The notes under the pieces are model-generated. The model was not told the origin of the DNA and did not search any database. It worked only from the letters and a program-made list of their open reading frames with translations. A stretch of 40,067 nt of DNA from IMG/VR virus record IMGVR_UViG_2585427781_000002; one strand, given 5' to 3'. Position 1 is the stretch's first letter; each line of letters begins with the position of its first letter. The DNA is from a virus. Lineage: Duplodnaviria; Heunggongvirae; Uroviricota; Caudoviricetes. Shown piece by piece: positions 22,881 to 31,185 of this stretch. The translations under genes and the position numbers were made by a program.

Positions 22881-23093
22881 TCAAAGTGCCACAACATGAA
22901 CAGCCGCGGGGCCTTTAGGTCCGTTCTCAATACCAAATTCGACTTCCTGATTCTCAGTTAACGTTTTGAAATCGTTGCTCTGAATAGCTGAGAAATGGAC
23001 AAACACATCTTTGCTACCATCTTTCGGCGTGATGAAACCAAAACCTTTTTCAGGGTTAAACCATTTCACTAAACCAGTCATTTTGTTAGACAT
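22881..23093 (-). CDS. cspI: cold shock protein, CspA family (CspI-like)
   Basis: [70 protein letters not shown]; canonical RNP motifs, 70 aa; long AT-rich upstream region consistent with a csp 5' UTR. Confidence 0.9.
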
Positions 23094-23456
23094 CATTATT
23101 ACCTTTTGAAGAAGTTAGCCCTTGGGCAGAATGGTCCGAAAAAAAATATCAGAGAGAAAAACCAACAAGGAAATCTCAAGAGGTACAAATAATAAAATTA
23201 TAACAATGACTGCTTCAGATAATTTTGTAACAAACCAGAACACCATTAACGCATGATTAACCAACCATAGCAAGGATTACTTTTGTAAAGAAAAACACAC
23301 GAATGAAACAATAGCTTTATTTATTAATAAAACGTGTCATTCTGTCTAATGACCTTTTATCTTACCCTTAAGATTTCAAGGATTTTGACTCATGGAAGAG
23401 TCCTTTTTATTTAAATTTCACATTCAGCGCTAAAAATAATCCGATTTAATATTAAT

Positions 23457-24484
<1,028 letters not shown>

Positions 24485-24611
24485 GGATATTTATCAGGAT
24501 TTATCAGTTTCTAATCTCTAGATATGTTAAGCACTCAGCCCGTCAGTGGTGGATACTGGCGTGTGTAATAAAGGGGGGATGGCTGATTACCTCTGATAAG
24601 GGAATGTAACT

Positions 24612-24908
24612 ATGAACGGTATAGATCCATTCAAACCAATCAGTAAGCAACTTGATGTGGTATTACCACAACTGACAAAACACAACGACCTTCTGGATAA
24701 AGTGTTGCCTTTTTATATTGCTGTTACCGCAAAATTATCAGGTAAAACTCGAGAAGAGGTTCTCAAATATAACATGCTGGCTTTAGAAACAATTTTTGGC
24801 TCAGAAAAAGCGGGAAAATCACCCAAAGAGCTGGCAGAATCTCAATTTGCTTATATGACAAATATAAGAGTATCCGAAATCTTTGATAAGCTACCAGACA
24901 TTGAATAA
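24612..24908 (+). CDS. hypothetical protein encoded antisense to the lysis cassette
   Basis: 98-aa ORF with AAGGGA RBS-like sequence upstream of the ATG; no signal peptide; AT-rich; convergent with the 72-aa gene. Confidence 0.5.
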   Translation: MNGIDPFKPISKQLDVVLPQLTKHNDLLDKVLPFYIAVTAKLSGKTREEVLKYNMLALETIFGSEKAGKSPKELAESQFAYMTNIRVSEIFDKLPDIE

Positions 24909-24932
24909 TTTCTAAGCGGCAGTAATGCCGCT

Positions 24933-25151
24933 TTATATTTTTTCAGCCAAATCTCTCAAGAACTGTTTGGCATGTTTTACCGCAGTAACTTCATAATAAT
25001 CCAAACCAGCTCCTTCAAGTCGCTCAAGGTTGATGTTCAGATCAAAAATTTCACCGGCAAAACGTTCTTTGTCCTGTAACGTTAAGATTACCGTAACTTT
25101 ATTCTCAAAATTGCGGGTCCCTTTCACAATCAGTTCATAGTTTTTAGTCAT
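24933..25151 (-). CDS. hypothetical small protein between holin and endolysin
   Basis: 72-aa ORF starting 5 nt downstream of the holin stop; same strand as the lysis genes. Confidence 0.5.
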   Translation of the reverse strand: MTKNYELIVKGTRNFENKVTVILTLQDKERFAGEIFDLNINLERLEGAGLDYYEVTAVKHAKQFLRDLAEKI

Positions 25152-25155
25152 TGTC

Positions 25156-25371
25156 TTACTCTCCTCTCGCAGCCTTACGCCTGTCTTCTTTAATCTTGAA
25201 ATAAAGGTTTGTCAGATACGTCAGCATGCCAAATACCAGACTACCCAATACACCTATTGCCGCCCACTGTGAGGGTGTGACTTTATCGAGCAACTGTAAA
25301 AACCAGTAGCCAGCACTGCCTGCAGAGGTGCTGTAGGCGATGCCCGTTGTTAACTTATCCATGGATTTCAT
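25156..25371 (-). CDS. pinholin, phage-21 S type
   Basis: From ATG 25371 with GGAGGTGA RBS: [71 protein letters not shown], 71 aa, with the dual-start motif (M1..M4) and two transmembrane segments, matching S21 as remembered. Confidence 0.9.
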
Positions 25372-25561
25372 AGCCTCACCTCCGCAGATAACGGATGGTG
25401 TACACGGTTTGGTTCGAAGAAGGAAAGAAGTTACATTAGCGTAAGGCCCGAACATCTATTCAAAAAGAAAAACGCCAGCAATTATTCTGGCGTAGCTAAA
25501 AATATCGTATAATCTTACACTTCAAAAAATAACTTTATAAAATGCCATCACATCATATCTT

Positions 25562-26284
25562 CTAAGAAAATCTTGATAAATATTGGTGCGGAGGCACACC
25601 AAAATATCTTCTAAAAACACTTACAAAATATGATGCATTGTCATACCCGCATATTCCCGCCACCTTGCCGACAGTATGGTTACTGTAGATCAATAATCTT
25701 TGCGCCATCATCATTCGTTCTTCAAGAATTAATTTACTAAACGATAATCCTTCGTCTTTTAATTTTCTTTTTAACAAACTCTCGCTCATATATAATCTTG
25801 AAGATATATCACAAAGTCTCCATGACGCTGAGATATCCGAGTGAATAATAGCCTTAACTTTACAACCTAAGCTATTAAGACTTCCGAACAAAAAACTTTG
25901 CACTATTTTCTCTGAAGATAAGACAGCAAGACATGCAAGTGATATTTGATTTCTAACTACATCCACGGTTTTGCTATCACAATTCAAGCATGCAACCAAG
26001 TTCTTTAACAATGAAAAATCTTCACATTCTACTATCAAGTATGACGGATAAAACCTTCTTACAGAAAAAGGTGAGAGTGTGTAGTTTTTAAAGAAATCAT
26101 TAACTGTTTTCTCCTCAACATCTACGATCATTAGATGATCTGTATTTGACGAAAAAAGATCTTTTAAATTGTATTCAATGAGGACAGCATTTCCTTTTTT
26201 AAACAAAATATCTTCTTTACCAATTCGGACACCAAACGAGTTCAACACCAAAATGATAGAACATATGTATGGCATATTATCCAC
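25562..26284 (-). CDS. AraC/XylS-family transcriptional regulator
   Basis: 240-aa ORF with a C-terminal AraC-type helix-turn-helix (...GICGYDNASYFVSVFRRYFGVPPHQY); low-GC gene with a 400-bp AT-rich upstream region. Confidence 0.85.
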   Translation of the reverse strand: MDNMPYICSIILVLNSFGVRIGKEDILFKKGNAVLIEYNLKDLFSSNTDHLMIVDVEEKTVNDFFKNYTLSPFSVRRFYPSYLIVECEDFSLLKNLVACLNCDSKTVDVVRNQISLACLAVLSSEKIVQSFLFGSLNSLGCKVKAIIHSDISASWRLCDISSRLYMSESLLKRKLKDEGLSFSKLILEERMMMAQRLLIYSNHTVGKVAGICGYDNASYFVSVFRRYFGVPPHQYLSRFS

Positions 26285-26681
26285 CTGATATCATTGGGGT
26301 TACACCAGGTAAGTATAGGTGGAAAATCAATATTCGCCAGTTCAACAATAAGGAAAATCTCATTGCATCACAACTATAAAACCATGTGTTTAACTCACAA
26401 AAAACAAATCATTAAACTAATCTGTTATATTATAATAGCTGCGTGCAATAATAATATTATATACTCTTAATATTCACTTGAAATATCTTCATATAAAAAC
26501 AGATTGAATAAAATCGTTTGGGGCTGGTATGTTTACCAACATTAAATTGCATCTCAATGTTTTCTTTAGCGTGAACAGGATTTTTATAAAAACTGACACT
26601 ATGAGCATCATAGCGTAGTTTTTACGATTGTAAATATCCTGCATACAGGAACTCATCACTTTCAGATGATATCGCATACAG

Positions 26682-27641
26682 TTAATTCACCATCAGTCTT
26701 AGAGCCAGTTCTTCCGGATAGGGATCGAAGTAATTCTGTGTAAGCAAGTAATCATTAGGATACTCACCCAGATAATGCTTCAGCAGAGTCAACGGCGCAA
26801 GAAGAGGCAATGTGCCAAAGCGATAGTTAAGTATAACCTCGCTCAACTCTTTACGCTGGCGTGTACTTAAGTAATTACTAAAATACCCCTGTATATGCAT
26901 CAGCACATTCGTGTGATTTTTACGTGATGCTGGTTTTCTGAGAATCGCCATCAGATTATCACGATACACCTCAAAGTATGATTCAAGGTCCGCCCACTCG
27001 TGTATTGCAGCCACAAATGGTCCCATATCTTTATAGCCTGCCTGGCTATGCGCCAACAACTGAAGCTTATAACGACTATGAAAAGCTAATAACTCTCTTC
27101 TTGATAATTTCTCCTTGTAAAGGTGATTGAGCTCATGCAAAGCAAAAACTCTTTCAATAAAATTCTCACGAAGCACTGGATCATGTAATCGCCCATCCTC
27201 TTCAACCGGTAGCCAGGAAAACTTTTCCATCAAAGTGCTCGTAAATAGTCCCACTCCATCTTTACGACCTCGATTACCATTTTCATCATAGACACGCACG
27301 CGCTCCATGCCACAGCTGGGAGATTTAGCACAAACCACAAACCCCGATACATCCTTTAATTTGTCCATATAAGAACGACTAAACTCTGTCATTCTCTCTG
27401 TCACATCCTCATTCTGGTCGTGGCTGAAACACATCCGTATATTTCCTTGCTTCGAGCGCACAAGTCGTAGAGCAGGACGCGGAACTGGCAGCCCTATAGC
27501 CATTTCCGGACATACTGGTCTGAATGTTACCCATTCCACTAATTTGTCCATTAAAAAGTCATCTCTTTTGTGACCACCATCAAAACGAACAGCAGAACCG
27601 CCCAAACAACCGCTGATCCCAATCACAGGTTTTTTTATCAT
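26682..27641 (-). CDS. DUF523 (TudS-like thiouracil desulfidase family) fused to DUF1722
   Basis: 319-aa ORF; N-terminal GISGCLGG...FDGG with conserved cysteines (..RPVCPE.., ..CAKSPSCGMERV..) typical of DUF523, and a helical C-terminal half consistent with DUF1722. Confidence 0.65.
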   Translation of the reverse strand: MIKKPVIGISGCLGGSAVRFDGGHKRDDFLMDKLVEWVTFRPVCPEMAIGLPVPRPALRLVRSKQGNIRMCFSHDQNEDVTERMTEFSRSYMDKLKDVSGFVVCAKSPSCGMERVRVYDENGNRGRKDGVGLFTSTLMEKFSWLPVEEDGRLHDPVLRENFIERVFALHELNHLYKEKLSRRELLAFHSRYKLQLLAHSQAGYKDMGPFVAAIHEWADLESYFEVYRDNLMAILRKPASRKNHTNVLMHIQGYFSNYLSTRQRKELSEVILNYRFGTLPLLAPLTLLKHYLGEYPNDYLLTQNYFDPYPEELALRLMVN

Positions 27642-27833
27642 TTCCTCCCCCTTGACTAATTCATTAACACATAAACTTTGTAGTGCACGGACTAAATTGC
27701 CTTTCTGGCTTCATCACTGACAATTTTTCTGTTATTGACTATTCCTAATATAGTAGGAAAGTTCTTTAAGTGATCGGTCGTACTCATCTATCTTTCATAC
27801 TTACTCTCAACTATCAAAAGTACAGGATTTATT

Positions 27834-28358
27834 ATGAAGTTATGGCCTGTGTTGACTGGCATTGCACTCTCTTTCACTCTTATAGCATGTAAGGCCCCGA
27901 CACCACCTAAAGGTGTGCAGCCGATTACAAATTTTGACGCCAACCGCTACCTCGGAAAATGGTATGAAATAGCTCGCCTCGAGAACTGGTTCGAACGTGG
28001 TCTGGAACAGGTCAGCGCTACTTATGAAAAACGGAACGACGGAGGGATTCGCGTACTTAACCGTGGATACGATCCAACGAAAAACAAATGGAGCGAGAGC
28101 GAAGGTAAAGCATACTTTACTGGAGATACTAAAACTGCAGCGTTGAAAGTTTCGTTTTTTGGCCCCTTCTATGGTGGCTATAATGTAATCAAGCTGGATG
28201 ATGAGTATAAGTATGCTCTTGTCAGTGGTCCGAACAGAGAATACCTATGGATTCTGGCAAGGACCCAAACTATTCCAGATAATGTAAAAGCAGACTATGT
28301 GCGTACCGCTCAAAAGTTGGGATTCAATGTCAATGAACTATTATGGGTTAAACAATAA
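27834..28358 (+). CDS. blc: outer membrane lipocalin Blc
   Basis: 174-aa ORF with lipoprotein signal peptide and lipobox (LIAC), then ...NFDANRYLGKWYEIARLENWFERGLEQVSATY...KVSFFGPFYGGYNVI...YLWILART.., matching bacterial lipocalin as remembered. Confidence 0.9.
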   Translation: MKLWPVLTGIALSFTLIACKAPTPPKGVQPITNFDANRYLGKWYEIARLENWFERGLEQVSATYEKRNDGGIRVLNRGYDPTKNKWSESEGKAYFTGDTKTAALKVSFFGPFYGGYNVIKLDDEYKYALVSGPNREYLWILARTQTIPDNVKADYVRTAQKLGFNVNELLWVKQ

Positions 28359-28386
28359 AATCCCCACCCGAAATGATACTTATTAG

Positions 28387-28413
28387 AAAAAAACCAGCCT
28401 TTGGGGAGGCTGG
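28387..28413 (-). terminator. intrinsic terminator downstream of Q (tR'-like)
   Basis: Stem CCAGCCT (28394-28400) / AGGCTGG (28407-28413) with loop TTGGGG; on the minus strand the hairpin is followed by a 7-nt U-run (plus-strand A-run 28387-28393). Lies about 100 nt downstream of the Q stop. Confidence 0.6.
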
Positions 28414-28513
28414 CTAAATCAGGAAACAAGCTGTTATATGATAATAACTACGTTGCGATTCCAACATTTAAAATGTTAGACTAATGAAAATCAGACAGCA
28501 ACTTTTCCTTTAA

Positions 28514-28906
28514 TTATTTCGAACAATCAGCATCCATCTCCAATCGGAGATCCAACACCATCAGCATGCCCTCCACTACGCCCTCAGCTTTCTGGAGCAT
28601 CCTGCCAACCCAACAATCAGATCGCCCATGCTTACGTGCAAGCGCCATAAAAGTCATGCCGCCGACATAATAGTCCACCAATAAATCATGTAAATCGCTG
28701 TTGTTTTTTTTCAGGCGAGCCATACATTCACAAATGATCATCGCGTCATCGTCACAGCATTGCGGACGAGATCTTACTTTTGAAGGAATTAATCCCTTAA
28801 AACCGGCGGCAATGGACGACCAGGTCACATCTTCATGATTATTAGCCGCCCATGCCCCCCAACGCTCAAGAACCATCTGAATATCACGCATCAACTTACT
28901 CCACAA
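28514..28906 (-). CDS. late-gene antiterminator Q (phage 21 / QuuD-like)
   Basis: ...[73 protein letters not shown]... closely resembles Q21-type antiterminators as remembered; the start may be the internal Met (MRDIQ). Confidence 0.85.
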
Positions 28907-28908
28907 AA

Positions 28909-29958
28909 TTAGGCCAGCACACCAATTGCCAGCGCGCGATCGATAAATCGAAAAATCAGCTCCAGTTGGGAGCCATACTTCTCTTCAAATGCCACGGTAT
29001 CCGTATGCAACTCGTCGTGATGCTTTCTGCACAAAGGCAACACAAAGAGATCATGTGCTTTGGTTCCCATTCCGCCCTGCCCGTGACCAATTAGATGATG
29101 CGGATCGTCGGCTGGCATACCGCAGCAAGCACACGGCTGTGTCTTAACCCAGCGTGTGTATTTCTCCTTAACCCAACGGTGACGTTTAGGCAGCTTCATG
29201 AAAGATTCCGGAGACTCTGGATCAACGGTGATGCTTACCACCGTCTTTTCCTGTGATGGGTTTTGTTGCTGGTGGGCGTGAGGCAACGGTGCAAGATTTT
29301 TTGTGCGCTGTTTCAATATGCTGGTGGCGGTCTGCTCTCCCGGTACGATGTCGCTTTCGCGGTACACCGAGCAGTTTTTTTCCGCTGGTAATCCCAGCGA
29401 GCGACGTAATACCACTTCCGGTAGCGCGTCCGCCACCTGATTGCGGACCGCCCACCAGGATAATTCAGCCAGAGATAATTCACGCTCCTGCGTACCGCTT
29501 ATTGCGTGACCGATGACGTCAATCATCCATGCTGACAGGTTTTGATGAGCAAGTTGCTCGAGTGATTCGGATGTCTGGTCACGCAGCTGGTTGTCGCAGT
29601 GCCAGCACAACACCATTGCGCCGGTACCATAACGGTGAATAACGGTTTCGCTGTGATGATAATCGCCGTGTGGCCACTGGCAGGATTTAATATGGCGCAA
29701 CAGCCAGTCAGACAATGCACCAGCACCACCAGCAGCACGAATTACCCGTGCGTTACTGAAAAACGGCAGCAATGTTTTGTCTTCCACCAGCGGCTGGCGA
29801 ACGGCAGGAACGACCCCGGACGGCAGATTACGCATGCTTTTCGGTTCCGGCTCCACCAGTACCCGGGTATTGTGGAATACCGGCATGGATTCACGGCCCG
29901 GCTTAACGACCACCAGCCCGAGTTCCGGTACCAGAACAGGTCGAAGTAATACCCGCAC
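28909..29958 (-). CDS. DUF968-family phage protein (YdfU-like)
   Basis: 349-aa ORF with C-terminal Cys/His-rich motif ([18 protein letters not shown]...CRKHHDELH); translationally coupled to neighbours on both sides. Confidence 0.6.
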
Positions 29959-29959
29959 G

Positions 29960-30238
29960 TTACCTCCAGATGCGTTGCTGGAATGTACGGGACGGACGCG
30001 GTGGGCGTTCGGAGTAAGGCAATCTGACTGAGATTATCCAGTGACGGTAGTCGAGACTAAGAGCTTTCTTAACCTCGTATCCGCGCCTGCGGTAACACTG
30101 AATTATCCATTCAGCCTGCTCTTCAGTGCATGGAGGGTGCTGGAACCATTCAGACTTGAATGCGTGAGAATACCGCTCGTGCGTGCAGGCAAGAACGGGC
30201 GAATTATCAGAATTGTAATATTTTACGTTGCGTGCCAT
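29960..30238 (-). CDS. hypothetical phage protein
   Basis: 92-aa ORF ending 1 nt before the DUF968 start; Cys/His-containing. Confidence 0.45.
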   Translation of the reverse strand: MARNVKYYNSDNSPVLACTHERYSHAFKSEWFQHPPCTEEQAEWIIQCYRRRGYEVKKALSLDYRHWIISVRLPYSERPPRPSRTFQQRIWR

Positions 30239-30304
30239 CGGTTTTCTCCGGTGGCACGGTGTTACTCAGCGGGAGTTCAGCCCCGCGCAAGATTGTAGAT
30301 GAGT

Positions 30305-30556
30305 TTATTCTTCTGCAAAAGCTGAAAAGCCTGCTTTTATTCCGATCTCTTTCAGTGCCTGTAATGAAGTGACAAACTCACCTTCGCGCAAGATAAATCC
30401 GTCTGTCACTCGACCATCCACAAAATTAATTAACGCAGCCCCATTCTTTCGCAAACACATAATGCGGTAATGACTAACAAGATTTCCATTTTCAACGCAC
30501 ACAGCATAGAGGCCATCTTCACAAAAAATTTTACGCAGTTCTTCGATGTTCATCAT
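30305..30556 (-). CDS. hypothetical small phage protein upstream of hok
   Basis: 83-aa ORF (MMNIEELRKIF...); same size and position as Qin rem but identity not confirmed. Confidence 0.45.
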   Translation of the reverse strand: MMNIEELRKIFCEDGLYAVCVENGNLVSHYRIMCLRKNGAALINFVDGRVTDGFILREGEFVTSLQALKEIGIKAGFSAFAEE

Positions 30557-30671
30557 CAGAATCCTTCCGGATAATTAGCTCTCCCCTTTAAGGGACCATC
30601 CCTCTTATCCCTGCGCGCTACTTAAGTATTTTTGATTCTATTCCGGCACCGTCCAGAACTTCAAACGCGTT

Positions 30672-30702
30672 GAAAATAAAAACAAAACCCCGCCGAAGCG
30701 GG
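30672..30702 (-). terminator. intrinsic terminator of the hok transcript
   Basis: Stem CCCGC (30689-30693) / GCGGG (30698-30702) with loop CGAA, followed on the minus strand by a U-rich run (plus-strand A-rich 30672-30688). Confidence 0.5.
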
Positions 30703-30772
30703 TTAAGTGCGGGTGCGTTGAGGATGCCTGCCACATCAGAGGTGGCGAGGGATTTCTCCCTCGCCGGGTCTC

Positions 30773-30928
30773 TTACTCCTCAGGTTCGTAAGCTGTGAAG
30801 ACAGCGACCTCCGTCTGGCCGGTTCGGATTCGTACCTCGCAGAGGTCTTTCCTCGTTACCAGTGCCGTCACTATGACGGTTAAACAGATGACGATCAGGG
30901 CGATTAACATCGCCTTTTGCTGCTTCAT
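30773..30928 (-). CDS. hokD: Hok/Gef-family type I toxin
   Basis: From ATG 30928 with AAGGAG RBS: MKQQKAMLIALIVICLTVIVTALVTRKDLCEVRIRTGQTEVAVFTAYEPEE, 51 aa, single transmembrane helix plus the conserved Cys; an in-frame upstream extension (mok-like) is present in the track ORF. Confidence 0.9.
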   Translation of the reverse strand: MKQQKAMLIALIVICLTVIVTALVTRKDLCEVRIRTGQTEVAVFTAYEPEE

Positions 30929-31185
30929 AGCCTGCTTCTCCTTGCCTTTCGGCACGTAAGAGGCTAACCTACATGTGTCTAGCATGAAATTGGCCTCAGA
31001 TTAATGTTAAGCGTCTTGCAGGACGCGTAATGTTAACTGGGGCTTTTCTCTACCTGCCGTTGGTGTTCGTGCCCGAGGCAGATAGCCTCAAGCACCCGCA
31101 GTCATTCTACTTAACTAAGATTTCCCCGCAAACCGTTTTGTCCAGCACAGTAAATATCCAACTAAACCAATGGAGTTCGCTGTAT

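Follow-up and report, generated by a model that had tools for sequence, protein, structure and literature searches.

An AraC/XylS-family regulator placed by sequence in the PatE/GadW clade, a very probable cargo gene between Q and the holin of a lambdoid Escherichia coli prophage

The regulator gene and its start codon

The window analysed here is the whole of a 40,067-nucleotide (nt) viral DNA (IMG/VR record IMGVR_UViG_2585427781_000002), an Escherichia coli lambdoid prophage that runs from tail gene J through the exonuclease, and its subject is a gene for an AraC/XylS-family regulator carried on the minus strand between the antiterminator gene Q and the holin gene. The listing of open reading frames (ORFs) of the window gives a minus-strand ORF of 240 amino acids (aa) at 25562..26284 with a GTG start, whereas RefSeq annotates the identical DNA of E. 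coli IBS28 as a "helix-turn-helix domain-containing protein" of 237 aa (WP_024168019.1) starting with the ATG at 26275. The gene and the surrounding signals are as follows.

25562..26275, minus strand: AraC/XylS-family regulator of the GadW/YdeO/AppY/PatE/PsrA clade, 237 aa, as assigned by Pfam, NCBIfam, BLASTP, neighbour-joining tree and PHROGs
26281..26286, minus strand: Shine-Dalgarno (SD) sequence AGGTGG, 5 nt 5' of the ATG, kept in all alleles
26276..26681, minus strand: AT-rich non-coding upstream region (31% GC), a putative leader and/or promoter region and a candidate site for the binding of nucleoid silencers

The ATG at 26275 is most likely the true start and the GTG at 26284 is probably unused, because the conserved AGGTGG (26286..26281) contains that GTG and because the N-terminal MPYICSIILV can be aligned position by position to the motif MxxxCS[VI]I of the clade, which reads MSLVCSVIFI in YdeO, MTHVCSVILI in GadW, MDYVCSVVFI in AppY, MATTCSVILI in the AraC protein of O157 island OI-8 and MVVVCSVIMV in PsrA. 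The original prediction, which had placed the ORF at 25562-26284, thus stands as regards the gene but probably not as regards its start, for which the SD sequence, the N-terminus and RefSeq all favour the ATG.

The assignment of the protein to the AraC family, also part of that prediction, was confirmed by the Pfam families HTH_18 (residues 161-237, E 1.8e-17, 63.8 bits against a cut-off of 33.6) and HTH_AraC (E 1.4e-12, 47.8 bits against a cut-off of 26.6), and the protein has the C-terminal DNA-binding domain (DBD) of ~100 aa with two helix-turn-helix (HTH) motifs by which the AraC/XylS family is defined. The Pfam search returned no domain match for the N-terminal 135 residues. In PHROGs the protein belongs over its full length to phrog_1450 (E 7.6e-98), a family listed as of unknown function. 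The gene has a GC content of 33.3%, which lies in the lowest 1.4% of windows, against a mean of 49.7% for the window as a whole.

Placement among acid-resistance regulators

Sequence comparison places the regulator, over its full length, in the GadW/YdeO/AppY/PatE/PsrA clade. The original prediction had proposed an alignment with acid-resistance AraC regulators, and in that alignment the protein falls squarely within their clade. BLASTP against reference proteins drawn from annotated genomes gave the following identities.

O157 cryptic-prophage AraC protein at ~309 kb (OI-8; presumed PatE, z0321): 48%, E 2e-78, over 237 aa
PsrA (Sakai ECs_1087, extended to the full ORF): 39%, full length
GadW: 33%, full length
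AppY: 30%, full length
YdeO: 29%, full length
AdiY: 29%, near full length
GadX: 41%, DNA-binding domain only
YbcM: 23%, C-terminal half only

End-to-end alignments with clade members, which include the N-domain of ~135 aa, have E values from 2e-78 to 5e-33, and they are accompanied by a shared protein size (~237-253 aa) and the N-terminal motif MxxxCS[VI]I. In the neighbour-joining tree the three allele groups of the gene are sister to PatE and then to PsrA, within the GadW/AppY/YdeO cluster, and the clade shows next to no variation in the first recognition helix, SESLLKRKLK. YdeO is the best full-length match among NCBIfam models, with 113.8 bits over residues 4-234; next come PRK15186 (an unnamed AraC-family model), HilD and GadX, and in every case the score falls far short of the equivalog cut-off.

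Orthology with individual members was tried and rejected: the protein scores 113.8 bits against an equivalog cut-off of 348 for YdeO (NF007407) and 90 bits against a cut-off of 500 for GadX (NF007432), and it is 48% identical to PatE, whose type of gene occupies the tail-fibre-to-integrase region and not, like the window gene, the interval between Q and S. The regulator is not an orthologue of PatE, PsrA/B, AppY, YdeO or GadW/X, and represents a third prophage lineage with conserved cassette partners of its own.

DNA-binding domain, selection and ligand binding

The AlphaFold (AF2) model has a mean predicted local distance difference test score (pLDDT) of 77 overall and ~90 in the DBD, where seven helices span residues 136-235, and the modelled domain superposes on the crystal structure of the GadX DBD (3mkl) with a template modelling (TM) score of 0.87-0.90, a root-mean-square deviation of 1.1-1.4 A and 40% identity. 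Comparison of the allele groups gives a dN/dS of 0.19-0.25 for the whole gene and of 0.10-0.14 for the DBD, and the ORF is intact in 77 of 78 loci. The DBD with its two HTH motifs is thus intact and the sequence is under purifying selection; a disrupted DBD, named beforehand as what would refute the prediction, was looked for and is contradicted by the 3mkl superposition and a domain dN/dS of ~0.10.

It had also been stated that the protein carries no ligand-binding signature that can be named, which is true at the level of Pfam, the predicted N-domain being only loosely similar to those of Rns, ToxT and CsvR. These three are the best full-length matches of Foldseek in the PDB (E 2e-12 to 1e-8), with TM scores of only 0.41-0.46. 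In fatty-acid-responsive AraC proteins the carboxylate is bound by pocket residues, H20/R75 in Rns and K31/K230 in ToxT. A profile alignment of low confidence, made with an Rns sequence that was checked only by reproducing the residue numbers of PDB mutant titles, starts at Rns residue 42, leaving the strand with I14/I17/H20 without a counterpart, and pairs the carboxylate-binding R75 with Asp52. Neither the fold match nor this low-confidence alignment gave evidence of a fatty-acid pocket of the Rns type. GadW, GadX, YdeO and AppY have, to our knowledge, no reported small-molecule ligand, and their activity is taken to follow their level of expression; ligand-independent activity set by abundance is likewise the probable default for the window regulator.

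Prophage context

The surroundings of the gene within the late operon comprise the following features.

28514..28891, minus strand: antiterminator Q, QuuD-like, 125 aa, 86% aa identity to K-12 QuuD
28392..28415, minus strand: strong intrinsic terminator ~100 nt past Q, the probable tR' of the short late-promoter transcript
27834..28358, plus strand: cargo gene for a Blc-like outer-membrane lipocalin, antisense to the late operon
26682..27641, minus strand: YbgA-family cargo gene (DUF523/TudS-like plus DUF1722), co-carried with the AraC gene
25472..25493, minus strand: intrinsic terminator ACGCCAGAATAATTGCTGGCGT followed by a T-run, past the AraC stop codon and ahead of the holin, conserved in all allele groups
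25156..25371, minus strand: class II holin of the S21 type, dual start MKSM at 25371, opening the lysis cassette

Read along the late (minus) strand, the order is Q, tR', the blc-like gene (on the opposite strand), the ybgA-like gene, the AT-rich gap, the AraC gene, the terminator and the holin. With the MKSM start at 25371 the holin has 71 aa, as RefSeq essD, while its longest ORF would begin at 25455; with that start the gap between the AraC gene and the holin is exactly 190 bp (25372-25561), in agreement with the ~190 bp given earlier. The stretch tested is 100% identical to a prophage of IBS28 that adjoins rspB/ynfA, which is the Qin site.

The interval between Q and S is the classical cargo slot of lambdoid phages and holds stx in Stx phages; in DLP12 it holds nmpC and in Sakai Sp4 other genes. 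The terminator at 25493..25472 has a 7-bp stem with 5 GC pairs and a T-run and is 87-97% identical across alleles. The description of the gene as prophage cargo is confirmed by its position between Q and the holin, its deviant GC content, and a terminator of its own and a promoter-like motif, both conserved.

Several observations concern the neighbours of the regulator. The blc-like and ybgA-like genes are phage-borne paralogues of the chromosomal blc and ybgA (the latter DUF523/2-thiouracil-desulfurase-like plus DUF1722), with function unknown in PHROGs. A comparison with the Q-loading site of p21R' failed, the window Q being QuuD-like (125 aa) and not Q21. The holin is followed on its 3' side by DUF1327, an antisense 98-aa ORF, lysozyme and Rz-like genes. 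The DUF1327 gene (24933-25151, minus strand, 72 aa) separates the holin from the endolysin, two genes that directly adjoin one another in those cassettes of the DLP12 type that were examined, and the 98-aa ORF (24612-24908, plus strand; phrog_25324, of unknown function, and hypothetical in RefSeq) lies antisense between the DUF1327 and lysozyme genes. Within or close to the regulator gene an Rfam scan of 23000-31000 gave no match; it returned only a cspA thermoregulator, sok and two matches at chance level. The cspA-type thermoregulator leader (23000-23251, minus strand; 68 bits, clipped by the search boundary) lies 5' of a cspI-like cold-shock gene of the prophage, and a partial sok antitoxin RNA (30923-31000, minus strand) adjoins hokD.

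Distribution and linkage to blc and ybgA

A 1.4-kb stretch around the gene is present at >=80% nt identity in 976 of 5,426 complete E. coli genomes (roughly 18%), 342 of them at >=99% and 539 at 80-90%, and all of these copies are chromosomal. The gene alone, at >=80% coverage, is found in 996 genomes and the blc/ybgA part in 1,152 (nearly complete in 1,047, at 92-100% identity), counts from which it follows that the regulator, blc and ybgA travel together. The order Q, blc, ybgA, AraC, holin is kept in the isolated phages IdasGreatGrand (87% aa identity) and Lambda_2G7a/1H12/Lambda_ev (77% aa identity) and in prophages with other lysis cassettes, some of which continue with iss/bor; in IdasGreatGrand, Lambda_2G7a and such prophages tR' keeps its place after Q. 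Carriers include commensal, enterotoxigenic (ETEC), extraintestinal pathogenic (ExPEC)-type (iss-linked) and B-lineage strains. In IMG/VR at least 155 viral contigs carry the gene, and the identical protein occurs on 896 contigs under generic names only.

A scan of one genome per species gave a single match, an 86% identical copy on the 3.2-kb contig JARKOR010000151.1 of a Candidatus Nanosynbacter metagenome-assembled genome, which is most likely E. coli phage contamination or mis-binning. A literature search by accession and keyword, which did not cover the original PatE/Psr papers that list further homologues, found no dedicated study of the gene, which could be among the "six additional Psr homologs" referred to in PMC10877973.

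The constancy of this arrangement bears on what the regulator controls. AraC-family regulators often adjoin their targets, and the AraC, blc and ybgA genes keep the same order in ~1,000 genomes and in isolated phages, as would be expected if the regulator controlled the divergent blc-like and ybgA-like genes and itself in place of host regulons. This local role is nevertheless unlikely, since the nearest relatives, PatE, AppY and PsrA, have wholly different neighbours and act on host genes (PMC10057817, PMC10877973), the AraC gene behaves as a separate mosaic unit (82-100% nt identity as against 92-100% for blc/ybgA), insertion sequence (IS) elements lie between the genes in some strains in which the ORF is kept, and no repeat motif common to the two intergenic regions was found.

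The upstream region and its signals

The original prediction had described a non-coding AT-rich stretch of about 400 bp upstream of the gene, and this is accurate: 26285-26681 comprises 397 bp (406 bp when counted from the ATG) with no annotated coding sequence and a GC content of 31.0%, against the window mean of 49.7% and in the lowest 1% of 397-bp windows, and TpA is in ~2.5-fold excess (11.1% vs 4.5%). Upstream ORFs of 58 and 62 aa were rejected as genes, as they have no family match and their frames are broken by indels of 1-2 nt in other alleles. The interval from ybgA to the holin was aligned for five loci spanning three allele groups, and the features found upstream of the gene are as follows.

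26607..26634, minus strand: candidate distal sigma70 promoter TTTACA-16-TATGAT, a conserved island present in 29 of 33 distinct upstream sequences
26406..26444, minus strand: 39-nt copy of the segment that follows Q (28415-28453), with a perfect TATAAT at 26434..26429
26309..26325, minus strand: conserved block TTTCCACCTATACTTAC with the anti-SD sequence CCACCT and the -10-like TATACT

The block around TTTACA-16-TATGAT is 77-80% identical to the most distant allele, with flanks at 50%. Two further -10-like candidates lie upstream of the gene, the TATAAT at 26434..26429 and the TATACT within TTTCCACCTATACTTAC. Conservation is also found nearer the gene, in a block that reaches from about -100 to the ATG and takes in TTTCCACCTATACTTAC, and the SD sequence and start codon are kept too.

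The CCACCU of TTTCCACCTATACTTAC is complementary to the SD sequence AGGUGG 31 nt downstream. A hairpin that would hide the SD sequence and the AUG is predicted in both diverged leader types, with z-scores of only -1.3 to -1.9; it is lost in longer sequence context, and there are only two truly different leader versions, too few for covariation.

The window allele has an insertion of ~54 nt (26520-26467) that is unique to its upstream region, and it is a mosaic, its 5' part being nearly identical to the "89%" allele and its segment 25704-25520 unlike both other groups. That segment corresponds to residues ~190-237 as well as the C-terminal end (237 vs 243 aa), and the other two groups are ~90% alike there.

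The AT-rich gene and its upstream region are typical of H-NS targets, and most prophage genes are silent in lysogens (PMC10057817), as would be expected of a functionless passenger that is permanently silenced or decaying. Such a passenger is very unlikely, since dN/dS is ~0.2 (0.10 in the DBD) with the ORF intact at all but one of the loci compared, and since the SD sequence, the terminator and the upstream blocks are kept across alleles that are up to 18% apart in nt.

The 39-nt copy is identical to the segment following Q at 32 of 39 positions, with a local score of 41 against 18.9 +/- 2.7 in shuffles, a score reached by 0 of 500. The original segment lies just 5' of the tR' hairpin, and the copy ends where the hairpin would begin and thus lacks the terminator; it is present in two allele groups and absent from the third (the 82% group). 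The copy may be a proximal promoter, perhaps the late promoter repeated without its terminator, or else a scar that recombination left beside the blc-ybgA insert. The two copies of the 39-nt segment form direct repeats around the 2-kb blc-ybgA segment.

The presence of this copy, with its perfect TATAAT 130-170 nt 5' of the ATG, and the placement of the gene, which is on the late strand with Q/tR' on one side and the holin on the other, would also accord with a phage-directed regulator, expressed mainly from the late operon or the duplicated late promoter and tuning lysis timing or late genes in place of lysogen physiology. We regard this as highly improbable, because the gene is missing from many lambdoid phages whose Q and lysis modules are the same (such as DLP12, with nmpC), the duplicated element is missing from the 82% allele group, the dedicated terminator ahead of the holin speaks for separate expression in the lysogen, and no member of the clade is known to regulate phage genes.

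A connection to phage late transcription could also exist alongside control of host genes. A terminator-less copy of the segment following Q (the presumed pR'/qut region) with an improved -10, and a conserved anti-SD block that can sequester the SD sequence and the AUG, suggest that expression of the regulator might be tied to phage late transcription and to a structured leader, and not just to a generic promoter silenced by H-NS; the gene would then act as a switch gated by Q or by temperature or a small RNA (sRNA) and link the state of the prophage to the acid-stress regulon of the host; this extension is decidedly unlikely.

Interpretation

The gene is very probably a functional AraC/XylS regulator of the PatE/GadW clade carried as a moron. 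Morons are non-essential inserts that related phages lack and whose base composition deviates; the gene is missing from related phages and of deviant GC content (33% vs 50%), with viable phages that carry it, and it is provided with a terminator of its own at 25493..25472.

In the lysogen, transcription of the regulator would start at one or more promoters of its own within the AT-rich upstream region, a region probably held low by H-NS/Hha until counter-silencing occurs, by analogy with appY and psrA, and the terminator at 25493..25472 would end this transcript ahead of the lethal holin. Upon induction, Q-modified RNA polymerase coming from just past Q would pass both terminators, so that the gene would also be expressed late. 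The protein, probably free of ligand, would bind AT-rich sites at host promoters of the gadE/hdeAB type and increase acid resistance as AppY, PatE and PsrA/B do, and knock-on effects on motility, biofilm formation or the type III secretion system (T3SS) could follow, depending on the host. Activation of the host acid-resistance regulon (gadE/hdeAB), proposed because every characterised relative (AppY, PatE, PsrA/B) behaves in this way, has at best an even chance of being correct. The chain as a whole, in which a regulator of this clade, carried on a self-contained moron between Q and S with its own promoter or promoters, activates host acid resistance, is judged somewhat more probable than its opposite. 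As a lysogenic-conversion gene, it is plausible but ordinary.

Certain observations weigh against parts of this interpretation. No characterised member is more than 48% identical to the protein and the scores fall below the YdeO and GadX equivalog cut-offs, and target specificity may therefore differ. The tight linkage to blc/ybgA could instead signal a local regulatory role. The search for a promoter in 26285-26681, which the original prediction had proposed, yielded the conserved TTTACA-16-TATGAT candidate, but promoter-like motifs are not enriched in the region (13 vs 11.2 +/- 3.2 in shuffles) and several candidates compete, so that the promoter assignment draws solely on conservation. The high-affinity H-NS motif TCGATAAATT, allowing <=2 mismatches, is likewise not enriched (41 matches vs 40.4 expected), and the scan placed none of the matches within the upstream region.

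It is already established that prophage-borne AraC-like regulators hijack the GAD system, and the window gene fits this pattern; the regulator is no conceptual surprise. AppY, PatE and PsrA/B plug into gadE/hdeAB and thereby change acid survival, motility, biofilm formation and the T3SS, and the lineage found in the window is about as common as any of them. If activation of the GAD system by this regulator is true, it would be a widespread, transmissible modifier of fitness during gastric passage outside enterohaemorrhagic E. coli (EHEC).

Comparison with known systems

PatE (z0321), from OI-8/CP-933I of EHEC O157:H7, was reportedly described by Bender et al. in 2012, as cited in PMC10877973, and PsrA/PsrB (z1789, z2104) are said to have been described by Tree et al. 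in 2011 and Yang et al. in 2015. AppY has gadE and gadY as direct targets in chromatin immunoprecipitation sequencing (ChIP-seq) and activates both (PMC10057817), and appY is H-NS dependent; PatE activates gadE and hdeA, as does PsrB, and GadE and YhiF are induced by PsrA/B (PMC10877973), with psrA increased when the sRNA HnrS represses Hha (PMC13502914). Low GC content and long AT-rich upstream regions are shared by the members of the clade.

The regulator resembles Rns, CsvR and ToxT in having two domains with a small beta-rich N-domain, but the full-length fold match is poor (TM 0.41-0.46), identity is 18-20% and the window protein is ~26 residues shorter at its N-terminus. It is homologous to GadW and YdeO over its full length and its DBD superposes on that of GadX (3mkl), but those are genes of the core genome or of acid islands, and the window protein scores far under their NCBIfam cut-offs. 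AppY, encoded by DLP12 in K-12, is likewise prophage-borne, with a GC content of 32% and an upstream region of 620 bp at 28% GC, but its identity is 30% and its gene stands beside ompT, at the far end of the prophage.

PsrA (ECs_1087, in Sakai Sp4) occupies the same slot, between a QuuD-like Q (81% aa identity to the window Q) and the lysis region, and aligns over its full length; it differs in being only 39% identical, in having a CAAX protease and tRNAs as neighbours and in its association with LEE effector prophages (LEE, locus of enterocyte effacement). The Sakai annotation of psrA (195 aa; locus coordinates 48677-49390) appears to be truncated at its 5' end, an upstream in-frame ATG giving 237 aa and the N-terminus MVVVCSVIMV.

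The AraC gene of O157 OI-8 is presumed to be PatE (z0321) from its position in a genome of the EDL933 lineage. Its product is 98% identical to ev099 gp29, encoded by a tail-fibre-to-integrase gene of the temperate phages ev099, mEp332 and PhiR70_1, and because such a gene is present on viable phages the presumed PatE is still mobile. A preprint on E. coli Nissle names a "PatE CIW80_12240", which was not located under that locus tag, CIW80_RS12240 being bcsZ in RefSeq. PatE is the closest characterised relative of the window regulator, which it matches over its full length at 48% identity, and both are prophage-borne and AT-rich, with a similar size, the same MxxxCS[VI]I motif and a near-identical first recognition helix. 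Unlike the window gene, PatE is located in the tail-fibre-to-integrase (b) region without blc/ybgA neighbours, and the 52% divergence between the two proteins marks them as paralogous lineages.

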